Source of the DNA: Sulfolobales archaeon | GTDB taxonomy: Archaea; Thermoproteota; Thermoprotei_A; Sulfolobales; AG1 | Assembly (NCBI GenBank): GCA_038867615.1 | Contig: JAWBYA010000002.1 | Coordinates: 367,331 to 431,330 of the forward strand | Length of the DNA stretch: 64,000 nucleotides | Reading direction: 5' to 3' | In this document: piece after piece, positions 2,108-59,019 of the stretch | How the letters are laid out: each line of letters starts with the position of its first letter | How positions within the stretch are numbered: the first letter of the stretch is position 1 | Program-made: the position numbers and the translations under genes | Notes under the pieces: model-generated | What the model was told of the DNA's origin: nothing | The model's database searches: none | Seen by the model: the letters and a program-made list of their open reading frames with translations, nothing else

Positions 2108-2422
2108 CCTAACCACCACCGCTCTCCACGATCTTGCCACACAGAGATCATCCTATTAACAAGACATTCACAACAGTTTGACCCTGGATGCTAATTCTAC
2201 TCATTTTATTATTCATGGTCACATCCAAGGACTTCCGCCCCAACCCGCAGGATCTCTAACCCTGCGGGGTCATGGGAGTCTGTCGAGCCAAACAGCACCT
2301 GCCTCCCATCTACTAAGAGATCATCACCTAGATGGCTTGGAGCTTTGCTTCCATCGCTAGTCAATATGGAGACAAGTCCTACCAGCAGAGATAGATGTAT
2401 ATAGTTGATAGGGAGAGATCGC

Positions 2423-2465
2423 AATGATCGGGTTTGCAGAAAACTGCAAACCCAGAATATATAAT
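2423..2465 (+). promoter_or_regulatory. Palindromic operator GGGTTTGCAG-AAAA-CTGCAAACCC (2430-2453) plus TATA box ATATATAAT (2457-2465), copy 1
   Basis: Perfect 10-bp inverted repeat; 40/43 nt identical to 52181-52223 with the same spacing to TATA. Confidence 0.8.
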
Positions 2466-2496: not shown

Positions 2497-3999
2497 ATGG
2501 CGAGAATCGGTCGTGCCGGAAAGATACTACCCATTATATTGACAGCCATCCTAGTTTCTGGACTGCTATCCCCAATGATCAGTATAACCACAGCCCAGAT
2601 TCAGAGGGATATAAATCTAACCATAATGCTTGAGAAAGTAAGATCTTCTGTGGTGCTTATAATAACAATAGTAAAGGCGGTGATAATATGGGAGGACTTT
2701 ATACCACAGCTTCGAGAGGTTAGGATGGATCCTGTGGTGGAAGTAAGCACCATAGCCTTTGGCTCGGGGTTCTTTGTATCTAGCGATGGCTATATAATAA
2801 CAAACGGGCATGTTGTTAACGACTACCAATCAGAGTTCCAAAGAGTCCTCCCCCTTCTGAAGGACTTTGTGCAACAGTATCTTGAAGCAAGGACAAAGAC
2901 CACCGGCCAGCAGCCGAGCCAAGAGGAGATGCAACAACTATTTAGAGAAGTTATTAGGGCGTACTTAACTAATAGGTTGAAGATCCAAGACTATACTGTA
3001 GATGTGCGTGTTGGTGCTGGCAGGGTTGTTTCAGGCTTCGCCAACATAGGTAAGCTCTATACAGCAAGGATAGCATATTCCTCCCCCTTTGAAAAGGAAG
3101 ATCTAGCTTTACTAAAGATAGAGATAAAGAATGCCCCGTCTATCCGAGTGGCTCAGGAGAACATAGCCAGAGTAGGAGAGAGGGTTTGGGCTTTAGGATA
3201 CCCAGGTGTTGTTACTTTCCATCAACTGCTGGGTGTGGAAACGCTCTTAGAGCCTACTATAACAGAGGGTACCGTGAGTGGTTATAGGACGAAGACAGCT
3301 GGTGTGAGTGTTTTGCAATCTGACGTAACAGTTACGCATGGGAATAGCGGTGGGCCTGTTGTTAATTCAAACGGTATCGTGGTTGCTGTAACGTCTTTCG
3401 GATCAGCGGATCCTTCGGATAGCGGTAGAGAGGTTCCTGGGTTCAATTTCTTCGTTCCGGCATCGTATGTCTATGATATTATCAGAAGGTTTTCCGTTAA
3501 TAATGTTGAAAGCGAGACTATAAAGTTCTATGAGGAAGGTCTCAGGCTATTCTATCAGAAACAATACAGAGCCGCTATAGAGAGGTTCCAGATAGTCAAG
3601 AACCTATACCCAGGATTCCCATTCGTGGATGACTACATAACCGATGCCCAGAAAGCCATACTCAGAGGTGAAGAAGCCTCCCAGTTCCCCATAGACATGA
3701 CAATGATAGCCATAATAGCGGTTGGAGCAGCTGCTGGTGGGGGAGCGGGGTATATGTTTCTAAGGAGGAGGAAAGAGGCGGTTGGTAAGGTAAAGGGACA
3801 GCAGGGTCAGTGGCAATACGGGCAACAGTGGGGATATCAGCAGCCTCAGCAACCGCCGAGCCCAGCCCAGATGCCATTGCAATCGCCAGGGCCTCAGCAA
3901 CCACCCAGACTTCCTCCGGGCTATAAGTTCTGTATAAACTGTGGTAAGATCATACCTGAGGATAGCACTAAATGCCCATACTGCAATGCGGATCAGTAG
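2497..3999 (+). CDS. Membrane-anchored trypsin-like (S1) serine protease with TPR-like helix pair, TM, Gln/Pro linker and C-terminal zinc ribbon
   Basis: GSGFFVSSDGYIITNGHVV, DLALLK, HGNSGGP triad; signal peptide; TM followed by RRRK; CINC...CPYC. Start moved from 2434 to ATG 2497 (downstream of TATA, GGTGA SD). Confidence 0.85.
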   Translation: MARIGRAGKILPIILTAILVSGLLSPMISITTAQIQRDINLTIMLEKVRSSVVLIITIVKAVIIWEDFIPQLREVRMDPVVEVSTIAFGSGFFVSSDGYIITNGHVVNDYQSEFQRVLPLLKDFVQQYLEARTKTTGQQPSQEEMQQLFREVIRAYLTNRLKIQDYTVDVRVGAGRVVSGFANIGKLYTARIAYSSPFEKEDLALLKIEIKNAPSIRVAQENIARVGERVWALGYPGVVTFHQLLGVETLLEPTITEGTVSGYRTKTAGVSVLQSDVTVTHGNSGGPVVNSNGIVVAVTSFGSADPSDSGREVPGFNFFVPASYVYDIIRRFSVNNVESETIKFYEEGLRLFYQKQYRAAIERFQIVKNLYPGFPFVDDYITDAQKAILRGEEASQFPIDMTMIAIIAVGAAAGGGAGYMFLRRRKEAVGKVKGQQGQWQYGQQWGYQQPQQPPSPAQMPLQSPGPQQPPRLPPGYKFCINCGKIIPEDSTKCPYCNADQ

Positions 4000-4023: not shown

Positions 4024-6672
4024 ATGAATAGATATAGACAAGGCCGAGCAAAGATCCAGAGGATAGTATTATCACTACTCCTACTCCTAGCCCTATTACC
4101 AAACATCTCTATGAATATACCCAGCGTGCTGCTTACAAGCGGGGATACACAGCCCAAGATAGGGGATCAGTGGTTCTTCGAGATCTATAGCAACGAGCGA
4201 GTATATAGCCCCCGGGGTCCTGATAACTTCGTCTTAGTAGGCTACACCATAAATACTATTCAGGCAGCTAGTGGTGGTTACTATACACTCAACCAAACAA
4301 CATTGAACTCCGATCGTGATGTGATAAACACAGTCCTATATACCCTCTACCCCGACTGGAAGATTAAGGAGGAGAGACAACCCACGGGATATGGCGAAAC
4401 AATCGTTTACACCTACAAGCAACCACTACCCTTTGCCTTCATAGTACATCCAAGATCATCACAGGATTCGGGTAGCATTACCGCGGTGGCTGACAAGTAC
4501 CAGGAGAGTAGCAGTGGTAGGACTTATCTTGGCAACATAACATATAACCTGAGATACCGTGTTAACGGTACCATCCAGGTGGATTTCAAAGGCGTTAAGG
4601 TTCCAGCATACATGGTTGTTGAGAGTATAGATTACGAGGAATATGATGTTGAGCAAGGATACTCCAGCGGCTCTTTAGCGTTAATTTATCTGATCAACAA
4701 TGACTTCAAACTACCCTTCAGCTACCAGTTCGTGGAAAACATAGAGGGCGTTGATATCGTTAGCAGCAAGGAAGAGCTGAAGGAATACAGGCTAGATCCT
4801 GACCCTATTGCTAAGTATAGAGGAACCACCACATATACCACAACGACTACCACAACCACGACGACCGGGACTACCACGACTACATATACGCCGTCAGGGT
4901 CTATACAGCCCAAGGTAGGGGATCAGTGGTTTTACAATAGATATAGTAATGAGAGAGTATATAACCCCCAGGGTCCGGATAACTTCACCTTAACAGCAAA
5001 CGACATATATACCATCCAGTCAGCAACTGGCGATTATTATATTCTCAACCAAACATCTGTTTTTAATGAGACCGGGATCAGGGGAAGAGTTGTGACCATG
5101 ATCGCCATGTACCCTAACTGGAGCGTTAAAGAGATGGATATATTATTCCTGCTGACTGCTAAAGTCATCTTCAAGCAACCCATGCCATTCGTGATCCATC
5201 CAAGATCGTCCCAGGATTCAGGGAGCATTATCGCAATAGCAGAGACGTATTTGTTTGGCAGCTACACAGGCAATGTCACATTCTATATAAACTATCGCGT
5301 GAATGGCACCACCTGGGTAACGATCAAAGGGGTTAAGGTACCAGCATACATAGTTATCCAAAAAGTCGATGTTCAGACGTACACGGTCTCTGAGGGTCAA
5401 GAGAGCTATTCCAACGACTCCTACACCGAAGTCTATCTGATTAACAATGATTTCAAACTACCATTCCAACGCCAAACTATAAGAACCATCAACGGGGTTG
5501 AAGTCGTTACAGAGAAGAGTGAGCTAGTAAGATATAACCTAGACCCAGATCCCATCGCTAAGTATGGAGGTACAACTACGACTACAACGACAACAACCAC
5601 GACGATTGCTACGACTACCACAACGACAACAGCTACAACCCCGCCACCGGTTACTACTACAACCACAGCAACACCAACGACAACAACTATAGGGCCTGCT
5701 CCTAAGAGTTATTATGTGTCTTTCATCCTTAGAAAGGAGGGTAACTATTCGGCTGCAAGTGTTCAGGTGCCTATAGAGATCACTGATCTTGATTCTGGCG
5801 ATGTTGTTTCGACGTTCAATCTAACTGGTTCAAGGATTCTGAGGCTTCAGGAGTCTAGCTATGCCATTGCGGCATTGGTAACCGAGGATGCTACAAGCGA
5901 TGGTAAGGGTTATTATAGGTTTATCAAGTGGGTTGTTGGTTCAAGGGAGTATACAGACCCTGTATTAGAGCTAGATCTCAGGCAAAACATAACAATAACA
6001 ATGGTTATCGAGGTCTATACATTACAAGCCCAGGTACAGCCGGCGCAAACCCAGACAACAACCACAGCGGCAACGACAACAACACAGACCCCGAGAAACA
6101 CAACAACCACAAGAACAGAGGTGGTGACGCCGCCTAGAACAACAGCACAGACAATACCAGGGAGTGGGGATACAGGCAAAGGCAGTGGAGGCGATATAGG
6201 TGCAATACCACCCCCACAGGCAACCCAGACACAGGCCTGGTACTCTAACCCGCTTATAATAGGCTCCATAGCTGGTGGTGGCGCAGCAGCGATAGCCCTC
6301 TTTATACTGAAGAAGAGAAATACACTCAGAAGAGACGGCTATGCTAGGCCGGCTCCACCACCCCCACCACCTCCTACTCCCTACGTCCCTCCACCCCAAC
6401 CCACAACTCAGCAAGCCCAAACACCGCTGCCTCAACAACCACATGTCTCTCAAGCTCCTCCACAGCCATCAACCCAGCTGGGGATCATATGTCCTGTCTG
6501 TGGATATCAGAACCCGCCTTCGGCTAGGTTCTGCAGAAGCTGTGGATCCCAGTTACAACAGCTGCAACAGGCAGCACAGACTGGAGGGCAGAGGATATGC
6601 CCCCACTGTGGAACGCCTATAAGTTCTGCAACTGCCAAGTTCTGTCCTAAATGCGGTTCTAGGCTATCCTAG
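4024..6672 (+). CDS. Surface protein: two ~220-aa tandem domains, Thr-rich linkers, Ig-like domain, TM, Pro/Gln linker, double zinc ribbon
   Basis: Signal peptide; repeats QPKxGDQWF...LDPDPIAKY; poly-Thr; TM followed by KKR; CPVC/CRSC/CPHC/CPKC. Confidence 0.8.
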   Translation: MNRYRQGRAKIQRIVLSLLLLLALLPNISMNIPSVLLTSGDTQPKIGDQWFFEIYSNERVYSPRGPDNFVLVGYTINTIQAASGGYYTLNQTTLNSDRDVINTVLYTLYPDWKIKEERQPTGYGETIVYTYKQPLPFAFIVHPRSSQDSGSITAVADKYQESSSGRTYLGNITYNLRYRVNGTIQVDFKGVKVPAYMVVESIDYEEYDVEQGYSSGSLALIYLINNDFKLPFSYQFVENIEGVDIVSSKEELKEYRLDPDPIAKYRGTTTYTTTTTTTTTTGTTTTTYTPSGSIQPKVGDQWFYNRYSNERVYNPQGPDNFTLTANDIYTIQSATGDYYILNQTSVFNETGIRGRVVTMIAMYPNWSVKEMDILFLLTAKVIFKQPMPFVIHPRSSQDSGSIIAIAETYLFGSYTGNVTFYINYRVNGTTWVTIKGVKVPAYIVIQKVDVQTYTVSEGQESYSNDSYTEVYLINNDFKLPFQRQTIRTINGVEVVTEKSELVRYNLDPDPIAKYGGTTTTTTTTTTTIATTTTTTTATTPPPVTTTTTATPTTTTIGPAPKSYYVSFILRKEGNYSAASVQVPIEITDLDSGDVVSTFNLTGSRILRLQESSYAIAALVTEDATSDGKGYYRFIKWVVGSREYTDPVLELDLRQNITITMVIEVYTLQAQVQPAQTQTTTTAATTTTQTPRNTTTTRTEVVTPPRTTAQTIPGSGDTGKGSGGDIGAIPPPQATQTQAWYSNPLIIGSIAGGGAAAIALFILKKRNTLRRDGYARPAPPPPPPPTPYVPPPQPTTQQAQTPLPQQPHVSQAPPQPSTQLGIICPVCGYQNPPSARFCRSCGSQLQQLQQAAQTGGQRICPHCGTPISSATAKFCPKCGSRLS
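4150..5565 (+). repeat. Intragenic tandem domain duplication (4150-4818 and 4906-5565)
   Basis: Shared blocks GDQWF, YSNERVYxPxGPDNF, HPRSSQDSGSI, KGVKVPAY, YLINNDFKLPF, LDPDPIAKY. Confidence 0.9.
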
Positions 6673-9170
6673 AGGTTTTTATCCCTCCTGATACTTGATA
6701 TTTGTTTTTTCAGCCTCTCTATGAATAGGCGTGCTTCTTCTTCTCTCCCCTTTGCAGCGTTTTCAAGCATATCTAGTGTTTGGGCTAGTATATCCTCGCC
6801 CCTCTTTTTCATACTATCTATACTCCATAGGATGGCTCCACAGATAGCCATCACATAGATCTTTCTATAAAAGCTACATCTATGGATATTACCAAGGCTC
6901 CATGCAACATCTTCCGAAGGATCTTCGCCTCTTAGATACTTAACCAACGCCCTACCAGTTCTAGCAAGCACTAATGGTTCGCCCATCTTGATCTTGTTAT
7001 TAGTCATGATCTCCTCGGCCTTGTCTAGATCTCTCTCGCCAGCCTCTAGATCTCCTAAGAGGAGCTTTGATATTGACATATCTATATATATGCTAGCCTC
7101 TAAATATGGGTAGCCGGGCCCTAGGATTGTTGCTGCTTTTTCAAGCATCTCCACAGAGCCCTTAAGATCCGCTAACATGAAGAGGGTGCTAGCCAACTCT
7201 TTATACCCTATCGCCAGGCTATGCTTCGCACCGAGATCCTCAAAGATCTTCATGGCCGTTTTAAGGGAATCGATGGAATCCCCATACCTAAGCATAAGCC
7301 TATAAGCCATGCTAAGCCATCCCCTAGCCAGTGCTTCTCCAAACCTATTCCCAAAGACCATGTATCTCTTCACAATATGCTCAAGAATCTCTACAGCCTT
7401 CTCTAGATCCCCCATCTGCTGGTAAGTAGCTGCAATGTTATAGAGAGCACTATCACGGGCCTCACGATCCCTGAGTTCCATTGACATCCTTAAAGCTTGG
7501 TTGAGCTCTCTAAGCGATTCTTCATATCTATCCAAATGTCTGTATATAATACCCATCTCGATCTTAACTCGGAGCAAGAGTCTCTTGGAATAAGCCTCAC
7601 CTATCTCCCTAGCCCTTTCAAGATGATCCAGGCTGCTCCACGGATCTCCTCTAAGCTTCTCAACAATAGCCAGAGCAAGCTCAAACCAGCCGAGGTTTGT
7701 GGGGCTTTTCCACCTAACCGTATTTCTCGAAATCTTGTTGAGCACCTCGCCATATAGATGCAGACCGATCTTTCCTTGACTGATCGACTCAACAAGTTTG
7801 GGGAGCATCTCAGCAGCCTCTTCATACATGCCAGCATCTACATAGTGTTTCATAGCTACTAGATAGTCCTCGACGTATCCTCTAGATCTATGGTATGAGG
7901 CTATAATAGCGTGAAGCTCCTCGGGATCCTCTGTAACCCGTGCACATGTCTCTCTGATAAGCTCGTTAGCAGTATATCCTTCCCCTAACCTCTTGACCAG
8001 AAACATTCTCTCAAGCGTGCGGACAGCCTGTTTCGGATCGCTGATCCTGAGAAGCTTGATCATTGAGAAAGGCACTGGCCTCTCCGCTATCGAGATCAGC
8101 TCCAATACTCTACGCTCATCAGGAGATAATGCATCTATAACCTCGCTTACTATATATTCCATGGTTTTTGAGATCGCCTCGGAGCCTCTATGGCTCTTTA
8201 GTAATGATGAGTATAGCAATAACAGGTGGGGATGCCCACCAAATACGCTATAGAACCTCTCGAAATCCTCCAGCGATAAGCCTACCCTTTCAGCAAGGTC
8301 TCTAGCCTCTCCATACCCCATACCCCTCACCTCTATTGATGCACATCTTCCCAGGCAGTCTCTAGGCATCGTTCTCGATATTATGATCAGTTTGCTCTTG
8401 ATCCTCCCAAGCTCTGATACGGACTTAACAAGATCGTGTATAACGGGATCGGTGTTTAGGTGATAGTCATCAATAACTATAACCAGCTCCCTTGTCGAAA
8501 GCTCCTCAAGCAATAGGTTCATTAAGAGCCTCTCATCAGTAACACCACTATCAAGGGCTTCTAGTAGTCTTGGATATCCCAGTAAGTTGAGGAAGAGCGA
8601 GATCCTTCTAAGAAGCTGTATGAACGTGATCCCCCTATAGATCTGGTTCCAAAGCACAGGGATCTTAGAGTCGCTCAGAGCCCTAGCCACTAGAGAGGTT
8701 TTCCCTATCCCTGCAATGCCTACTACAAAAACAGGGTTTCCAACAGCCTTTTTCAAAGCATCTATATAGCTATCTCTACCCACGAAAACAGGTGTAGGGG
8801 GTGGGAGGAAATACATGTCATGCGCGGCTTTCCCGCCAGGCCTGCCAAGATCTATGCTAACGCCCCCAGCACCTACCCTGATCAAGATCTCAGGGGATCT
8901 AGCATAGTAGAGCTTAACATTAACACCCTCCCTTCTAACCCACCTACCCTCTACCAAACCGAGCTTCTCTAGCTTAGAGAGCCTTCTAGATACTGCTGTC
9001 TCATCAGCACCTAAAACTGTGCTGAGCTTCCTGGGGTTAGATGGCATTGAGGAGAGCACAATTAAGATCTTTAGCGATAAATCATCGGCTAGCGTGGAAA
9101 GGATCTCACCGGATCTCTCACGCCCCTCCTCGCTCCTGGGATTGTCGCTAATCATCTCGTTCGGAGCCAC
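6669..9170 (-). CDS. ArsR-type wHTH + STAND (NB-ARC/MalT-like) NTPase + TPR transcriptional regulator
   Basis: N-terminal HTH (LSTVLGADETAVSRRLSKLEKLGLV); FVGR; Walker A GIAGIGKT; Walker B IVIDDYH; GxP (GGHP); C-terminal TPRs. Confidence 0.85.
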   Translation of the reverse strand: MAPNEMISDNPRSEEGRERSGEILSTLADDLSLKILIVLSSMPSNPRKLSTVLGADETAVSRRLSKLEKLGLVEGRWVRREGVNVKLYYARSPEILIRVGAGGVSIDLGRPGGKAAHDMYFLPPPTPVFVGRDSYIDALKKAVGNPVFVVGIAGIGKTSLVARALSDSKIPVLWNQIYRGITFIQLLRRISLFLNLLGYPRLLEALDSGVTDERLLMNLLLEELSTRELVIVIDDYHLNTDPVIHDLVKSVSELGRIKSKLIIISRTMPRDCLGRCASIEVRGMGYGEARDLAERVGLSLEDFERFYSVFGGHPHLLLLYSSLLKSHRGSEAISKTMEYIVSEVIDALSPDERRVLELISIAERPVPFSMIKLLRISDPKQAVRTLERMFLVKRLGEGYTANELIRETCARVTEDPEELHAIIASYHRSRGYVEDYLVAMKHYVDAGMYEEAAEMLPKLVESISQGKIGLHLYGEVLNKISRNTVRWKSPTNLGWFELALAIVEKLRGDPWSSLDHLERAREIGEAYSKRLLLRVKIEMGIIYRHLDRYEESLRELNQALRMSMELRDREARDSALYNIAATYQQMGDLEKAVEILEHIVKRYMVFGNRFGEALARGWLSMAYRLMLRYGDSIDSLKTAMKIFEDLGAKHSLAIGYKELASTLFMLADLKGSVEMLEKAATILGPGYPYLEASIYIDMSISKLLLGDLEAGERDLDKAEEIMTNNKIKMGEPLVLARTGRALVKYLRGEDPSEDVAWSLGNIHRCSFYRKIYVMAICGAILWSIDSMKKRGEDILAQTLDMLENAAKGREEEARLFIERLKKQISSIRRDKNL

Positions 9171-16289: not shown

Positions 16290-16503
16290 AGTATCACCAT
16301 AGATCACTTATATATAAGGGGATAATAAATCGAACATACTGTTAATAGCAGTTTCATAATAGTAAAGTTGATAGTACGCCCATGAATCAACAGGGATAGA
16401 GATCCTGCGGGCGGTGGAAACTCCTGGATATAACTATGAATAAAGATAAAGTGATTGAAACTAACACCCAGGTATAAACAGGCTGTGCAGCCAGAACTCT
16501 TAA

Positions 16504-51779: not shown

Positions 51780-51866
51780 GCCGGGGTCGCCTAGCCTGGT
51801 AGGGCGCCGGCCTGCTAAGCCGGTGGGGGAAACCCCGCGCGGGTTCAAATCCCGCCCCCGGCGCCA
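51780..51866 (+). tRNA. tRNA-Ser(GCU), CCA encoded
   Basis: GCCGGGG/CCCCGGC acceptor; CCGGC-CTGCTAA-GCCGG; long variable arm. Confidence 0.97.
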
Positions 51867-52180: not shown

Positions 52181-52223
52181 AATGATCGGGTTTGCAGATA
52201 ACTGCAAACCCGGGATATATAAT
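52181..52223 (+). promoter_or_regulatory. Palindromic operator CGGGTTTGCAG-ATAA-CTGCAAACCCG (52187-52212) plus TATA ATATATAAT (52215-52223), copy 2
   Basis: Near-identical to 2423-2465. Confidence 0.8.
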
Positions 52224-52253: not shown

Positions 52254-55200
52254 ATGGTGGGTTTGGTTGGTGTGAGATCCAGGATCTTCTCTATAGTCTT
52301 TCTAGCCCTCCTAGTAATATCCTTCTCATACAACCTAGGCTTTGCAACCATATCAACTGCAGACTCACTTATAAAAGAGACCCTAAGAGTTAGAAAAGAG
52401 GTTATAATACCCCTAGGGAGAGAATCATACAAACCACTCGACTATATCCACAGAACACTACTCTACCTAGAAGATCCCTCTAGAAACGTATCATCCCTAC
52501 TAGGAATAATAGGCAAACAAGACCCCGAGGGAAAAAGACTGGGATGGGATCTAGCAATACCCCTAAAAGACAGAAAATTCATAGTCATAAAAACCGAGAT
52601 CCTCGAGGATAGATGCTACATATACTACACACTCTACAACGACTACACAGACGAGGTCGAGAGAACCCATATATATCAAGCAGACCCGATACTATGCTCC
52701 TACGACTATGGCTATTATAGAAGTAATAAAGAAAGAGCCGGGTTATCATATGTCGTGCTAAGCAACTACACAATAGCTCTAATAACAAGAAACCCATCAC
52801 TCACAGGGATTGTTGCAACGCCTGGCTGGAGCAATGACACCTCTTATATGAAAAACTTTAACAGGGATAATGTCCTCGTGATCCTAAAACTAGGCGATGA
52901 GAAACCCGAGGCCAGGGTAATAATACCAGGATCTTCAGCTTCAGACTCGGTTTTAGGAACAGCTAACGAAAATATATACTACTCTAGCTCGCTAGGATAC
53001 TCAGCAATCTCTATCAGCAGGCTCTCTCCTTATATATATCAGAGATATTATTACTGGGTCGATATATCCTCAGGTTCGGAAACAAACAACGATGTAGATG
53101 TGCAGTATAGGAGCAGGGGTGTTGCAATGCTAAGAGTTTATAACAACATGAGCCTAGAGGTAAACCTCTTCAGACTTGTCAGAAACGATAGCATAGGTTT
53201 TTACGGCAAGGTTATTAGGACAAGCGATGGTGGTTATCTACTAGCCGGCAGCAGTGGTTTCCTACGAGATGGTTATAATCGTGATGATTGGAATAGGTGC
53301 AGATTCTATGTTGCTAAGCTCAACAGCTCCATGGGGCTTGAATGGCTTAGGAATTACTATGTGAATCTAACAGCATACTACGAGGATCTAATGGATATAG
53401 CGTCAAAGAGCTGGGGTAATAGAAGTCAGGCATACGTTACAGCCTACCAAGCCTATCAAGAGATCCTTAAGCTCGATCCAAGTGTGAGGGCTAAGCTTTG
53501 CGGAGGCCTCTTGCTCTATCAATATGCAGCAGGGCTGGCGAGTATACCGATGATTGCCCCGGTTGATAACTACTACCCCCATGTCAGGGAGGTGAGGACT
53601 GGCAACGGATCTATACTGGGGTATTTGATAGGCACCAATATAGGTGGAGCACCATATGGTTTCGGAACATACCCCGGGGGATATTATTATGGATATGTAG
53701 CCTTCATGATAGATCCTAGGGGTAATGTGGTCTGGAATGTTCTTCTAAGCAATGGTGCGGGAACCCAGCTGTATTATCTGGAGAGACTAGGGAGCGATCT
53801 GGCTGTGATGGGTATCACGGGGGCTACTGCTTATGGTCCCTATGGTCAGTTCGGTTTGATCAATATGAGCAGCGGTGTTTTCACAACATCATGGTATGAT
53901 CCTGGTGTATGGGATTCTATTGATTTCAGGGCTGCTGCCTCAATGATCCTTTGGGGCTATGGTAGGGCTGTTGAGACCGAGGATGGTGATGGCTATCTAT
54001 ACACAGATCTTGGTGAATGGCAGTTTAAAGATATTTTTAGTGGTTATGGTCTTGAGATTGGCTATGCTAGGAAGAGCGATCTCCTTGCGATCTTCTCAAA
54101 CGTGAGGAGCTTCTCCTTCAAGAAATGGGTTATAAGTGAAGAGATTCCTGAAAGTGTTGCCAACATAAGTGTTAAGAGCTACAGCCCCCTGGTAGTCGGG
54201 GAGGATGGTGTCACAATACCTAATACATCGTATAAAATAACACTATCCAACCCCAATATATTAAGGATAAAATACCTAGGAGGAGACTTCAAACTTGAAA
54301 CTATATTCAGATACCCACAATACCTCATGCCAGGCTACGAAGGATTCAGATCTCTCCCAACAGGGGCTGGCATAGATACTAGGGATACCACTATTTATAG
54401 CAGCGATGGTTTTATAGCAGCATCCAATCTCTTCCTAACAACCATTGATCTAGGATCTGTTAAGGTGGGGGATGAGGTCACCTATAAGATCGAGGGTATA
54501 AAGCTCACCAAACTAGGCAAACCCCTATCGGAGAAAATACTCTCAGGAGGGTTCAGAGATATAGCATATTCTTCTGAGGGCTTCACAATCCTTGGAGGAA
54601 ACTTCTCAAAAGCAGGGTATAAGGAGAGATTCATCCTCGACGTAAAGTTAAAGCCAAACGTGGCAGGACCAAGAGCCTACACACTGAGACTCCCGGCCGA
54701 GAGCCTCTACCCGCCCAACAATCCTAGCAAAAGCCCACCAGTAACGCTATACGGCTATAGAGTCCTATTCATAGGCCAAGTAACAAACTATGTAGCTATA
54801 ACAAACCACAGCTCCTATAATATCAGCATAAAATACGCCATCTCAACAGCAATAACAAGCCCCCCACCAACTGCAAGGGTAGGCGTACCAACACCATATA
54901 ACTTCTACATAACAAACGTAGGTAATATAGAAGCAGTATTCATATACGCATTCCTAATGCCATTCTACATGAGAGCCCAGAGCGTCCTAGGAGCAGACCT
55001 CTACCTAATCCCAAGAGAGGTTGAAGACGGAGACATGGTCGCACTAGCAGCAATCAAAATACCACCAGGAGGTATGAGAACAATACAAGTAATAGCAGTA
55101 GCACCAAGCAACTATATATATGAATTCAACCCACAAGGATCCTGGAAAGGATTCTCAATATCGATCAGCGGAGCAGGCTTCACAAACGGCTACAACCCAC

Positions 55201-58200
55201 TCCCAGTCCAAGTAGCAACCCTACCCCCAGACCTATGGAACAACCTAACAAAGAAACATAGAAACAACATACCAACAATATTCAACGAATCAATAGAGAT
55301 AGGGCTAGAACTTGAGGAGAAATTCTTCGACGACCTTATAGATAGGTGGTGGAGTAACAGCTCAGAAGCCTCAAAAATAGTGAAAGACCTAGCCATGTTG
55401 GAAGACTCAGGCACCTTTGGGAAAAAACTAGCGGAAGCTATAACAAGCAAGTTTTATAGAAAACAGATATGGAGCTACGTAGAGGATTTTAAGAGAAATG
55501 GGAGACCCGGCGGCTTCTACACCTCCCCCCTCGATATAGTGCATGAAGAGACTGTGTATAGATATAACAAGGTGCTTGACAAAAACCCAGAGCTCCTTAC
55601 AACAAGCAGAGGATCCAAACTGCCGATAAACATAGAGATGATCGTAGAGGTGTCTCAGAGCTATAGCTTTATGCAGCTACTCTCAAAAGCAGTGAGCCCT
55701 AAGTATAGCTACATACCAGTAGCTATCGAGAACACACCACAATCAGCATCCCTCCAAACACCACAACAAGGAGCAGGATCATCATCCACAATCTCACACC
55801 TCTCCCTCGGAAGCGCATTCAAATCCCTTTCCTCCATCGCACTCCAAAGCCAGGGCCAGGGATCCACAGTGATAGGCTATATGGATGCAATGACAAAGAA
55901 CTGTCTAGACCTCTATGCAAAGTTCGGGATAAAAGCAGCCCTACTCAGCCCCGAAGAAATCCGCAAACTCAATGAGGCCCTTAAAAACCTACCCATATAC
56001 AAAGACCCCGACGCCCTTGCCCGCTACCTAGTTGACAAGATCCTCTCAGCCATTTTCTCCAAGAGAGCAAAACTAGTCGAGAAATACGGCACAGCAGACC
56101 CCTCACTGATCCTCCAAATGGCTCTAGAGAGGTTAAAGACCAACCCCAACGACCCAGTGGCGCGGGATATGGTGAACGAAGCCATCGACCTTCTAAAAAG
56201 CACAAGCCTAGAGAACCAGTTATACTACTTACTCAAAGGCACCCCTATTTTTGTCCAGGCTACTGCCCAGGGCTTGGATGAAGCCGCCAAGACTCCCCTG
56301 ATGGGCCTGTTAACAGGCATATTATCAAGCGCACTTGACACCGTCCTAGTTGGTTATCTCGATAACAGCGGCGTCTCAGCAGTCCTAGCTAGGTACGGGA
56401 TCTATGTAGGGGGTTCTGAGTACGCCTACAAGGGAGACCCAGGCGTTATTCTCTATAATATGGCTAGCATCGGTATAGCATTATACGACCTAGGCAGCTT
56501 CGCCAAATCCCTACCCGAGGATCTGGTAAAAGCTGGTACCATGTATACGGCTAGCACTAAGGGTATCGCTGTGCAGTTTGGTAAGCTTGCAGACGAGCTT
56601 GATCTCAGCAACACCAGGATCCTTTCGGTGAACGAGATCTCTATAAACAGCCTGGAGGACTCCTTGATCAAAATACTCTCACAGCGTAAGTGGGGAGAAG
56701 GTAGCGAGGATATTCTGAAAAGTATCTTCAGCGAAGCCGCCGCTACAAGCCAGCTCAAGGATCTAAAGAAGGTTGGCGATAAGAAGGTTGTGAGTAAGAA
56801 TGGATACGAGATCTTCGAGCAAAGCTTGAAGAAGGCTAAAGGAAACATTATTATAGATGTTAGAAGTTCCGGCGGTGTTGAGTCCGCAGGAGGCTTCACG
56901 ATCACACTGTCCAGGCAGGCTGACGATACACCAACACTCTCCATAGTATCGAGTTCAAGCGTCGCCAAAACAGTTGAGATCGATGGCGATACGATCAAGC
57001 TCTCCGACATTACTATTTACAAGAGCATCCTGCCCGGTCCGAAGAAAGAGATTATCCCCTACGCCTACTCCCAGAGCGCAGATACCTTCTTCATCAGTGC
57101 CGATGAGGTGAAAGACTATGTGAAGTATATAAAATCCAGCGACCCCAACTACAGAAAGATTAAATATCTCATGGATAAGCTTGGAGAGAATAAGATGGCT
57201 GCGATCTCCCAGTACCTAGATTTCCTAAGAAATGAGGGTAAGGTTGATAACTACGCCATAGAAGCCCTTAAGTTCTATGGCTTCTATAAAAAACTCCTCT
57301 CCCTCGATCAAGACGCGATCTCTCCAGAACTGTTGAAAGCATTTAGAGATAAATACGGCGACAAGGGGTGGGAAGAGGTTTTCCAGAGCCTTATGATAGA
57401 GGGTAATTTCAAGGAGATCCTTGACTGGGGGAGTAGGCTTGGCCTCAGCCCAGACAAGATCAACGTAAAGACACTTAATAATAAAGATATCAGTAACCTT
57501 GTCAAAACCCTAACATCAGGCAACGATCTAGGAAGCATTGATGCTCTAGACCCTGCAGAGCTGGCGAAAAAAGCCTACGAAACTCAATCCTCCCTCGATC
57601 AGCTTGGATCATCGCTAGAAGCTCTCATCAATAATCCATTACTATCAGGTGGTGATGTAAATGCATATATAAGCCTCCTCAAGGCTGCCGCAAACTATAG
57701 AGGTAAAACCCTAGAGGATTGTGCAAAATATAAACAAGTTGGGAAGGAGGGGGATACTGTTAACCTTAGAATAGGTGATAACATCTACACACTCAAAATA
57801 GCCAGAGATCCTGACAAGGCTCCTATGAGATCCTCTTCTGTGAGGATCATAGCCTCCAGAGATCCCAACCAGGTTTCTGTAACACCCGAGAGGTTTATAA
57901 GGCTTCCAGGCCAGGAGCTCAGTATACTTGCTGAGTTTGAGAACTATGCAAATGCTAGTGCTGAAGCCGTGAATGTCACCGTGAACCTCGTGATCAAGGG
58001 ACCCGTAGATCCGAGATCTGTAGAGGTTGTTGACGTTAGTAGGAGGGATGCATACATATCATGGTCAATAAACACCTCCACCGGATCTATAGTGTATAGA
58101 ATCATCTTCGAAAACATAAACCTACCACCCAATAAGAAACCCCCAGAGGGTCAGGGCTGGGTCCTATTCAAAGCAAAAACACTAGACAGCATAAAAACAG

Positions 58201-58784
58201 GAGACACCATCGAGATCTACGCCGACATAGTATTCGACTACAACCCACCCCTAAGAACCAATATCATAACACTCCTAACAGATCTAGAACCTCCTAAAAC
58301 GATCCTTACGAATACCAGGATCGATGGAAAAACACTCACAATAGAAGCCCAATGCACAGACACAGGATCAGGATGCCTCGAAACCCTAATAACCCTCAAA
58401 AACACACAAGGCTTCGAAAGAAACTTCGCAACAAACACAACAACAGGAACTATAACCCAAACAATAGATCTAAGCAATATAGAGCCAGGAAGCTACACAA
58501 TAACAATAATATCAAAAGACGCCGCAGGAAACATCGAGAGCAAGAACACACCAGACACAACAATAACAATACAGAAGCAAGAAACAATAACACCAATAGC
58601 AACAAAAACCATAACAACAACACCTACAATAACAACAACACAATCCCCGACGCAAACACCAACCCAGACAACAAAACCCGAGGACGGAAAGCCGCCAATA
58701 GATATAATGATAGTAGTAACAGTAATAATCCTAGTAGCAGCCGGTATCGCCATATATATGGTTAAGAGGAAGAGGATAGGGTAG
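52254..58784 (+). CDS. Giant (~2175 aa) membrane-anchored surface protein: propeller-like N-terminus, Ig/DUF11-like domains, helical insert, SRDPN-initiated Ig-like domain, Thr stalk, TM
   Basis: ATG after GAGGTG SD; signal peptide; TSDGGYLLAG and IDPRGNVVW blades; ITNVGN; NLPP..PPEGQGWV.F...ADIVFDYNPP.TN; TM followed by KRKR. Confidence 0.8.
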   Translation: MVGLVGVRSRIFSIVFLALLVISFSYNLGFATISTADSLIKETLRVRKEVIIPLGRESYKPLDYIHRTLLYLEDPSRNVSSLLGIIGKQDPEGKRLGWDLAIPLKDRKFIVIKTEILEDRCYIYYTLYNDYTDEVERTHIYQADPILCSYDYGYYRSNKERAGLSYVVLSNYTIALITRNPSLTGIVATPGWSNDTSYMKNFNRDNVLVILKLGDEKPEARVIIPGSSASDSVLGTANENIYYSSSLGYSAISISRLSPYIYQRYYYWVDISSGSETNNDVDVQYRSRGVAMLRVYNNMSLEVNLFRLVRNDSIGFYGKVIRTSDGGYLLAGSSGFLRDGYNRDDWNRCRFYVAKLNSSMGLEWLRNYYVNLTAYYEDLMDIASKSWGNRSQAYVTAYQAYQEILKLDPSVRAKLCGGLLLYQYAAGLASIPMIAPVDNYYPHVREVRTGNGSILGYLIGTNIGGAPYGFGTYPGGYYYGYVAFMIDPRGNVVWNVLLSNGAGTQLYYLERLGSDLAVMGITGATAYGPYGQFGLINMSSGVFTTSWYDPGVWDSIDFRAAASMILWGYGRAVETEDGDGYLYTDLGEWQFKDIFSGYGLEIGYARKSDLLAIFSNVRSFSFKKWVISEEIPESVANISVKSYSPLVVGEDGVTIPNTSYKITLSNPNILRIKYLGGDFKLETIFRYPQYLMPGYEGFRSLPTGAGIDTRDTTIYSSDGFIAASNLFLTTIDLGSVKVGDEVTYKIEGIKLTKLGKPLSEKILSGGFRDIAYSSEGFTILGGNFSKAGYKERFILDVKLKPNVAGPRAYTLRLPAESLYPPNNPSKSPPVTLYGYRVLFIGQVTNYVAITNHSSYNISIKYAISTAITSPPPTARVGVPTPYNFYITNVGNIEAVFIYAFLMPFYMRAQSVLGADLYLIPREVEDGDMVALAAIKIPPGGMRTIQVIAVAPSNYIYEFNPQGSWKGFSISISGAGFTNGYNPLPVQVATLPPDLWNNLTKKHRNNIPTIFNESIEIGLELEEKFFDDLIDRWWSNSSEASKIVKDLAMLEDSGTFGKKLAEAITSKFYRKQIWSYVEDFKRNGRPGGFYTSPLDIVHEETVYRYNKVLDKNPELLTTSRGSKLPINIEMIVEVSQSYSFMQLLSKAVSPKYSYIPVAIENTPQSASLQTPQQGAGSSSTISHLSLGSAFKSLSSIALQSQGQGSTVIGYMDAMTKNCLDLYAKFGIKAALLSPEEIRKLNEALKNLPIYKDPDALARYLVDKILSAIFSKRAKLVEKYGTADPSLILQMALERLKTNPNDPVARDMVNEAIDLLKSTSLENQLYYLLKGTPIFVQATAQGLDEAAKTPLMGLLTGILSSALDTVLVGYLDNSGVSAVLARYGIYVGGSEYAYKGDPGVILYNMASIGIALYDLGSFAKSLPEDLVKAGTMYTASTKGIAVQFGKLADELDLSNTRILSVNEISINSLEDSLIKILSQRKWGEGSEDILKSIFSEAAATSQLKDLKKVGDKKVVSKNGYEIFEQSLKKAKGNIIIDVRSSGGVESAGGFTITLSRQADDTPTLSIVSSSSVAKTVEIDGDTIKLSDITIYKSILPGPKKEIIPYAYSQSADTFFISADEVKDYVKYIKSSDPNYRKIKYLMDKLGENKMAAISQYLDFLRNEGKVDNYAIEALKFYGFYKKLLSLDQDAISPELLKAFRDKYGDKGWEEVFQSLMIEGNFKEILDWGSRLGLSPDKINVKTLNNKDISNLVKTLTSGNDLGSIDALDPAELAKKAYETQSSLDQLGSSLEALINNPLLSGGDVNAYISLLKAAANYRGKTLEDCAKYKQVGKEGDTVNLRIGDNIYTLKIARDPDKAPMRSSSVRIIASRDPNQVSVTPERFIRLPGQELSILAEFENYANASAEAVNVTVNLVIKGPVDPRSVEVVDVSRRDAYISWSINTSTGSIVYRIIFENINLPPNKKPPEGQGWVLFKAKTLDSIKTGDTIEIYADIVFDYNPPLRTNIITLLTDLEPPKTILTNTRIDGKTLTIEAQCTDTGSGCLETLITLKNTQGFERNFATNTTTGTITQTIDLSNIEPGSYTITIISKDAAGNIESKNTPDTTITIQKQETITPIATKTITTTPTITTTQSPTQTPTQTTKPEDGKPPIDIMIVVTVIILVAAGIAIYMVKRKRIG

Positions 58785-58831: not shown

Positions 58832-58915
58832 GCGGGGGTGCCCGAGCGGGTCAAAGGGGGCGGACTTAAGATCCGCTGGCGTAGGCCTGCGTGGGTTCGA
58901 ATCCCACCCCCCGCA
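58832..58915 (+). tRNA. tRNA-Leu(UAA), intronless
   Basis: GCGGGGG/CCCCCGC acceptor; GCGGA-CTTAAGA-TCCGC; variable arm. Confidence 0.97.
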
Positions 58916-59019
58916 CTTGGAGCTAGCTAAACCTATAGTGCTCCTGGATCTCCGTCTTCATAGCTCTCTGGTGTTATATGTTAATATGGCTTCTTACACT
59001 ATATAGTCTCCGGTGGGGC

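Follow-up and report, generated by a model that had tools for sequence, protein, structure and literature searches.

The window examined in this study, a 64,000-nucleotide stretch of the genome of a Sulfolobales archaeon (G000 in our genome set), contains two copies of a palindromic operator-promoter element on the + strand, at 2423..2465 and 52181..52223. A sequence-only reading of this DNA had paired them as one duplicated element, and they are identical at 40 of 43 positions, far above chance. Each holds perfect 10-bp arms around a 4-nt spacer (2430-2453 and 52188-52211); the half-sites that are conserved elsewhere occupy 2431-2436 and 2447-2452 in copy 1 and 52189-52194 and 52205-52210 in copy 2, and the TATA boxes occupy 2458-2465 and 52216-52223. 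When the 24-nt palindrome was subjected to a shuffle test, two matches were reached in 0 of 100 shuffles, even with 3 mismatches allowed. The TATATAAT box begins 4 nt past the palindrome, and the 3-nt gap given earlier holds only if the box is read as ATATATAA. The remaining particulars of that description stood: the probable ATGs, at 2497 and 52254, lie 74 and 73 nt from the start of their respective elements, and the starts chosen by the ORF caller (2434 and 52182) fall within the elements.

No MITE- or REP-like scatter, which had been named as evidence that would speak against a regulon, was seen: the genome has three copies, each before a TATA box. The third copy lies on contig C1 at 307349-307391 (- strand), has one arm mismatch and the same 4-nt gap to TATATAA, and precedes the gene for a 2058-aa surface protein. 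At spacer 4, nothing else in a genome scan came within 3 mismatches in 20, and an Rfam search of the window returned tRNAs only, with no match at the element. Another hairpin, lying ahead of each window copy (2244 and 52090), was rejected, since its 7 matches, against 3.84 expected, were equaled in 16 of 100 shuffles. Window positions 2244-2279 and 16376-16411 form an inverted 36-nt match (83%) whose 10-nt core is not above chance. The genome also carries a separate dispersed palindrome family with common flanks, in about 10 copies (for example, at C1:12655, 51698, 141636, 235521, and 253922 and at C3:94588), which are probably the ends of insertion sequences or MITEs.

Copy 1 precedes the gene for a 500-aa membrane-anchored trypsin-like (S1) serine protease with a zinc-ribbon tail (2497..3999, + strand; Pfam Trypsin_2, E = 2.9e-24). 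After a gap of 24 nt follows the second gene of the operon, which encodes an 882-aa surface protein with tandem domains, Thr-rich linkers, and a double zinc-ribbon tail (4024..6672, + strand) and is convergent with a gene for an HTH-STAND-TPR protein (hereafter the STAND gene). Copy 2 precedes the gene for a 2176-aa surface protein with a variable N-terminal part and a DUF7619 domain near its C-terminal anchor (52254..58784, + strand). As had been stated, the genes directly downstream of the two elements are unrelated, each of the two proteins matching only itself in the genome by tblastn, and both proteins carry a hydrophobic stretch near the N terminus and a membrane anchor late in the sequence, which in the protease is followed by a Gln/Pro-rich zinc-ribbon tail. 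The 2176-aa giant is the longest open frame of the genome, and the giant behind copy 3 ranks second. Compared with G002 and G003, its identity is lowest at residues 200 to 500 (50 to 70%) and reaches 91 to 96% at residues 1800 to 2000; its central part matched three near-identical proteins only and had no match in the Atlas. The gene stands alone between tRNA-Ser(GCT) (51780-51866) and tRNA-Leu(TAA) (58832-58916), a typical gene-gain spot. Divergent from the third site is the gene for a 524-aa exported protein (L030:9535-11109) without a match among the families tested. In one of four metatranscriptome runs, 48 stranded reads, all in the coding orientation, covered the protease gene, the 882-aa gene, the 5' part of the STAND gene, and the gene after it; none of these reads fell between 800 and 2554, and no start site was visible. 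Overall, the sequence data support a local regulon of at least three operons in this genome.

The candidate regulator is encoded at 6669..9170 on the - strand. It is an 833-aa protein of the PH0952 clade that combines an ArsR-like winged HTH, a STAND NTPase, and a TPR sensor (Pfam HTH_24, HTH_5, and TPR_12), and the closest solved structure is PH0952 (PDB 6MFV; E = 3.7e-32). The core motifs G151/G154/G156/K157, D234/D235, R266, and G312/P314, which cover Walker A, Walker B, the conserved Arg after strand 4, and GxP, were invariant in 10 of 10 aligned rows. The gene is present in a single copy in this genome, and no site was found in its own upstream region. By profile search, 69 of 351 genomes of the class have a STAND protein of this clade; a contig search returned 80 loci, of which 4 were close and the others distant STANDs. 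The STAND tree (FastTree) has many long branches, and clade assignments were not based on it. An antiviral STAND (Avs) was considered and rejected, as PADLOC matched just Csa3/CasR-type HTH and TPR models and no Avs model. Protein-kinase-like genes, recognized by eye, adjoin or lie near the STAND gene in two loci (L178 and L233, from G135 and G136). In two others (L280 and L281) a tandem pair of STAND paralogues stands right behind a giant gene, which in L280 exceeds 2600 aa.

PH0952 of Pyrococcus horikoshii has the same architecture and belongs to the same clade, with an N-terminal ArsR-like HTH, a STAND core, and a TPR sensor, and the available sections of its description present it as a structural model for STAND autoinhibition and as a putative regulator, giving no binding site, target, or inducer (PMC6468293). 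Proposals for all three are made here; the likeness rests on protein comparison. Our literature search found no site or regulon for the PH0952 clade, within a coverage that excluded most subscription papers and supplements, whose neighborhood tables could link STAND to surface proteins.

Of the 61 genomes of the relatives set, 4 contain the full palindrome: G000, G002, and G003, in orthologous promoters, and G048, in a single match within coding DNA. Among seven promoters compared, the palindrome and the TATA box were nearly invariant, and the DNA further upstream had diverged. In orthologous promoters (L002, L005, and L006), the spacer at window 52198-52201 is ATAA in one species but appears as the reverse complement in a second species, which looks like an inversion of the loop between the perfect arms. 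In G004, whose STAND protein is 40% identical, the inner bases are altered, and the outer arms are retained before the protease gene and a broken giant gene, as is the TATA gap; that giant-gene copy (L158:1-865) is interrupted by stops, yet its site and TATA box are still there. In G004, another DUF7619 giant directly precedes the protease operon. Relatives retain only the outer half-sites, GGTTTG-N10/12-CAAACC, and a 5- to 7-nt gap to the TATA box. This refines the operator proposed earlier: conservation in the recognition element is confined to the outer GGTTTG/CAAACC pair and does not extend to the entire 10-bp arm. Retention of the outer half-sites and the TATA gap while the rest varies is as expected for a protein operator. 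Two familiar kinds of site were rejected. MalT boxes are asymmetric and arranged as direct repeats, whereas a single inverted repeat is present per promoter here. Lrp-type boxes, such as that of Ss-LrpB, have TTGCAA-like arms, but the inner TTGCA arms are not conserved, and other lineages keep the outer GGTTTG/CAAACC.

In other families, homologues of all three G000 targets lie behind the site, often adjoining the STAND gene. Protease homologues (49 to 53% identity) follow immediately after the STAND gene in G149, G150, and G153; homologues of the DUF7619 giant are found behind the site in G147, G280, and G034, the copy in G034 being divergent from the STAND gene; and a homologue of the C1 giant in G113 is likewise divergent from it. 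Further genes led by the site encode clostripain-family proteases, beta-helix, CARDB, and Ig-like proteins, cupredoxins, and an exported protein of 540 to 580 aa without a Pfam match. Among 54 hand-picked site rows, 51 lead an ORF, and 35 of the 37 ORFs of at least 250 aa look exported, compared with 79 of 377 neighborhood ORFs. The genes led by the site are mostly those of exported proteases and very large surface proteins. One exported protein led by the site (L033:8304-10040 and L284:3242-4876) matched the NCBIfam anti-phage ProA model far below its cut-off (E = 1.9e-15 and 6.7e-11) and by eye looks like a transglutaminase-type cysteine protease.

For the class-wide scan, a core pattern derived from G000 relatives including G004 (GGTTTG-N10/11-CAAACC, 5 nt, TATA) was searched with up to 1 mismatch in the 351 genomes. 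Matches were obtained in 49 genomes, against 14 for the reversed control; they were present in 21 of 69 STAND genomes and 28 of 282 others, and exact matches in 9 of 69 and 0 of 282, respectively. After removal of the 8 training genomes, the counts were 13 of 61 against 28 of 282 and, for exact matches, 2 of 61 against 0 of 282; because the genomes are related and not independent, Fisher values on this co-occurrence are overstatements. The pattern was missed in 48 of the 69 STAND genomes, which counts against the regulator link. The positional evidence near STAND genes is the stronger test. In 64 STAND neighborhoods (852 kb), a site with an AT-rich box occurred in 18 and the reversed pattern in none, and 46 did not pass the strict rule, with the qualification that spacer 12 was added to the pattern post hoc. 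For loci outside the motif training, the figure was 13 of 57. A relaxed intergenic scan gave 66 clusters versus 15.

Inspection of matches in genomes without STAND covered 14 loci from 14 of the 28 genomes; none lay before an exported-protein gene, and the three checked further were inside ORFs. DUF7619 giants occur in 8 of 281 genomes, 7 of which have STAND. In the remaining one, G243 (92% complete), no STAND was found, and the giant gene is intact with no site before it. Likewise, G005, which retains a 72-aa STAND scrap, has a truncated protease gene with no site before it. Three genomes go against the association: G065 (95% complete) has a perfect site and TATA box before a small companion gene, and no STAND was found; G340 (87% complete) has a variant site, and no STAND was found; and G339 has a variant-type STAND, with no site seen.

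Sequence variation in the site points to the same protein. In most STANDs, the recognition helix is ETD(V/I)SRRL, and it is paired with GGTTTGA-N9/10-TCAAACC. The STANDs of families f13 and f17 have ESHVS, EPHVS, or ESNVS instead (G075 left out) and are paired with GGTTTAC-N8/9-GTAAACC. This variant pattern was found in 5 of 9 genomes with a changed helix and in 13 of 342 others, a comparison in which the pattern was mostly derived from the same sites. The site in G329 and the second site in G071 were new, and both lie in promoter position with exported proteins behind them. The site sequence varies together with the STAND recognition helix. As had been proposed, a shared regulon with the adjacent STAND protein as its candidate regulator is supported by the site-STAND association and by the homologous targets behind the site.

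Among 21 metagenome loci, three with close relatives of PH0952 (L279, L282, and L284) show a perfect site ahead of an operon encoding an exported protein, a membrane protein, a small protein, and STAND. The STAND protein of L283 matches PH0952 at E = 2.9e-208 and is 82% identical to that of L284. Perfect sites are also present in L294 and L295, and one-mismatch sites in L290 and L296; 10 of the 21 loci have no site, and in 3 of these the upstream giant gene runs off the locus. Five of the 21 pass the strict TATA rule, of which 3 duplicate known genomes and 1 is not a true STAND locus. The small protein belongs to a group of unannotated 50-aa two-helix proteins encoded beside STAND genes, usually behind a site (for example, L152:565-723 and L284:5503-5646). 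Its gene is present in 22 of the 69 genomes with STAND and, among the 282 others, in G065 only, and it was not found in G000 or its genus. The predicted structure consists of two helices (pLDDT 90), no Pfam, PDB-sequence, or Atlas family match was obtained, and the helical part of HU topped the fold search with all E values above 1. By analogy with MalT, our guess is that the companion may be a feedback inhibitor.

Taken as a whole, we consider it reasonably probable that the repeated palindrome serves as operator for the HTH-STAND-TPR protein encoded at 6669-9170, which would activate a regulon of exported proteins through a MalT-like switch. The comparisons above make it very likely that the HTH of this protein binds the site and, if it does, activation is considerably more probable than repression. 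It can be envisioned that each of the inverted half-sites, GGTTTG and CAAACC, is contacted by one of two winged-HTH domains. The TATA-proximal half-site ends 5 nt short of the TATA box, a position from which the protein, once bound, would most likely activate transcription by recruiting TFB/TBP. The resting state would be an ADP-bound monomer, as in MalT, and a ligand at the TPR sensor would lead to ATP binding and multimerization, again by analogy with MalT as outlined in the available sections of PMC6468293. The regulon would consist of exported proteins, in this genome those of the surface protease operon and of the two giant genes that exceed all others in length.

The same regulator could instead be a repressor that covers the edge of the BRE and blocks TFB until it is released by a ligand. 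We regard this as unlikely, but it draws on several observations: ArsR-like HTH proteins are often repressors, several of the TATA boxes are canonical, and the proximal half-site reaches to -6 relative to the TATA box, where the BRE has its 5' edge. The gap to the TATA box argues the other way; of the 21 rows (33 in total) that have a canonical box, 19 show a gap of 5 to 7 nt, and the gap is unchanged where the spacer is 12 instead of 10, as would suit a contact to the basal machinery. Moreover, the canonical box is absent from 12 of the 33 promoters, and the STAND regulators MalT, GutR, and AfsR are activators, according to the sections available (PMC6468293, PMC13581612). Sites immediately upstream of the BRE and TATA box are typical of archaeal activators, and TFB-RF1 (PF1088) of Pyrococcus furiosus has a palindromic site in just this position; however, its motif, TCTG-N5-CAGA, and the regulator itself differ from those described here, and TFB-RF1 needs a weak BRE (PMC5937170, in part). 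Activation is favored because of the fixed upstream geometry and this precedent. A crude score of the BRE, which would be expected to be weak under TFB recruitment, did not distinguish the site promoters from 19 tRNA promoters (p = 0.28), and repression therefore keeps a minor share of the probability.

That another protein traveling with the STAND gene, such as the 50-aa companion, reads the site and that STAND acts only upstream is considerably less probable still. The distribution of the small gene, the G065 site, and the resemblance of its model to HU would fit such a reader, but G000 and its genus carry sites and no small gene was found there, the site changes with the STAND recognition helix, and the small gene is itself mostly downstream of a site, as a target would be. 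Least probable of all is that no regulator is involved and that a promoter block was copied between loci or that the element is a small mobile or hairpin element. Copies 1 and 2 have 7 additional bases in common 5' of the palindrome, and their perfect arms fold strongly (z = -6.5), so that recent copying or palindrome correction has probably shaped the window copies. In G328, an identical variant site and promoter occurs twice, 1.1 kb apart (L249:5457 and 6571), one of them with no ORF behind it; recent promoter copying is suspected there, as for the window copies. Nevertheless, there are only three copies in G000, all before a TATA box, and the true dispersed palindrome family of this genome has a different sequence. 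In other lineages, the inner bases are noncomplementary and the hairpin is weak, yet the half-sites and geometry persist, and viral contigs contain no STAND relative or exact site. Explanation without a regulator is largely refuted by the sites in STAND neighborhoods and the homologous targets behind them.

The activator proposed here is reminiscent of MalT of Escherichia coli, and also of GutR and AfsR, in which a STAND switch and a TPR sensor likewise serve a transcription regulator; however, the DNA-binding domain of MalT is C-terminal, unlike the N-terminal HTH of the present protein (PMC6468293, available sections). MalT controls sugar uptake, whereas the present system would act at an inverted repeat, through the TBP/TFB machinery, on genes for exported proteins. 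The VARTIG modules of Thermococcales are large variable surface proteins that have been proposed to act in conflict or recognition (PMC8416519), but they vary at the C-terminal Ig domain and the giant of the window varies at residues ~200 to 500, and this identification was rejected; the main text of that paper makes no mention of STAND or MalT.

The ligand is probably a peptide or a protein, given the TPR sensor and the protease targets. As to purpose, an inducible cell-contact or surface-arming program is the leading candidate, at somewhat less than an even chance; protein scavenging is a doubtful second and envelope repair slightly more doubtful. Plain scavenging is weakened because neither a clear peptide transporter nor a clear catabolic gene is among the targets, and a classic polymorphic toxin is weakened because a tRNA, and not an immunity-like gene, stands behind the giant of the window. 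A more speculative and rather unlikely extension is that the regulator is an NLR-like sensor used as an archaeal transcription switch, in which the TPR would sense a protein of foreign origin or one derived from damage, such as a zinc-ribbon tail freed by the regulon's own protease, and would switch on the genes for surface proteases and giant contact proteins; the companion would be a feedback inhibitor. If true, this would represent an inducible innate-immunity-like or contact-attack program common to Thermoprotei and PH0952-type organisms.

The element is very probably a genuine operator, and it probably defines a regulon for a known archaeal regulator clade. The predicted operator and regulon make the function of PH0952-type proteins directly testable, and they would place secreted proteases, several giant surface proteins that lack annotation, and a 50-aa protein without a known family under common control; if the proposal is correct, a STAND switch would be driving the archaeal TBP/TFB machinery.
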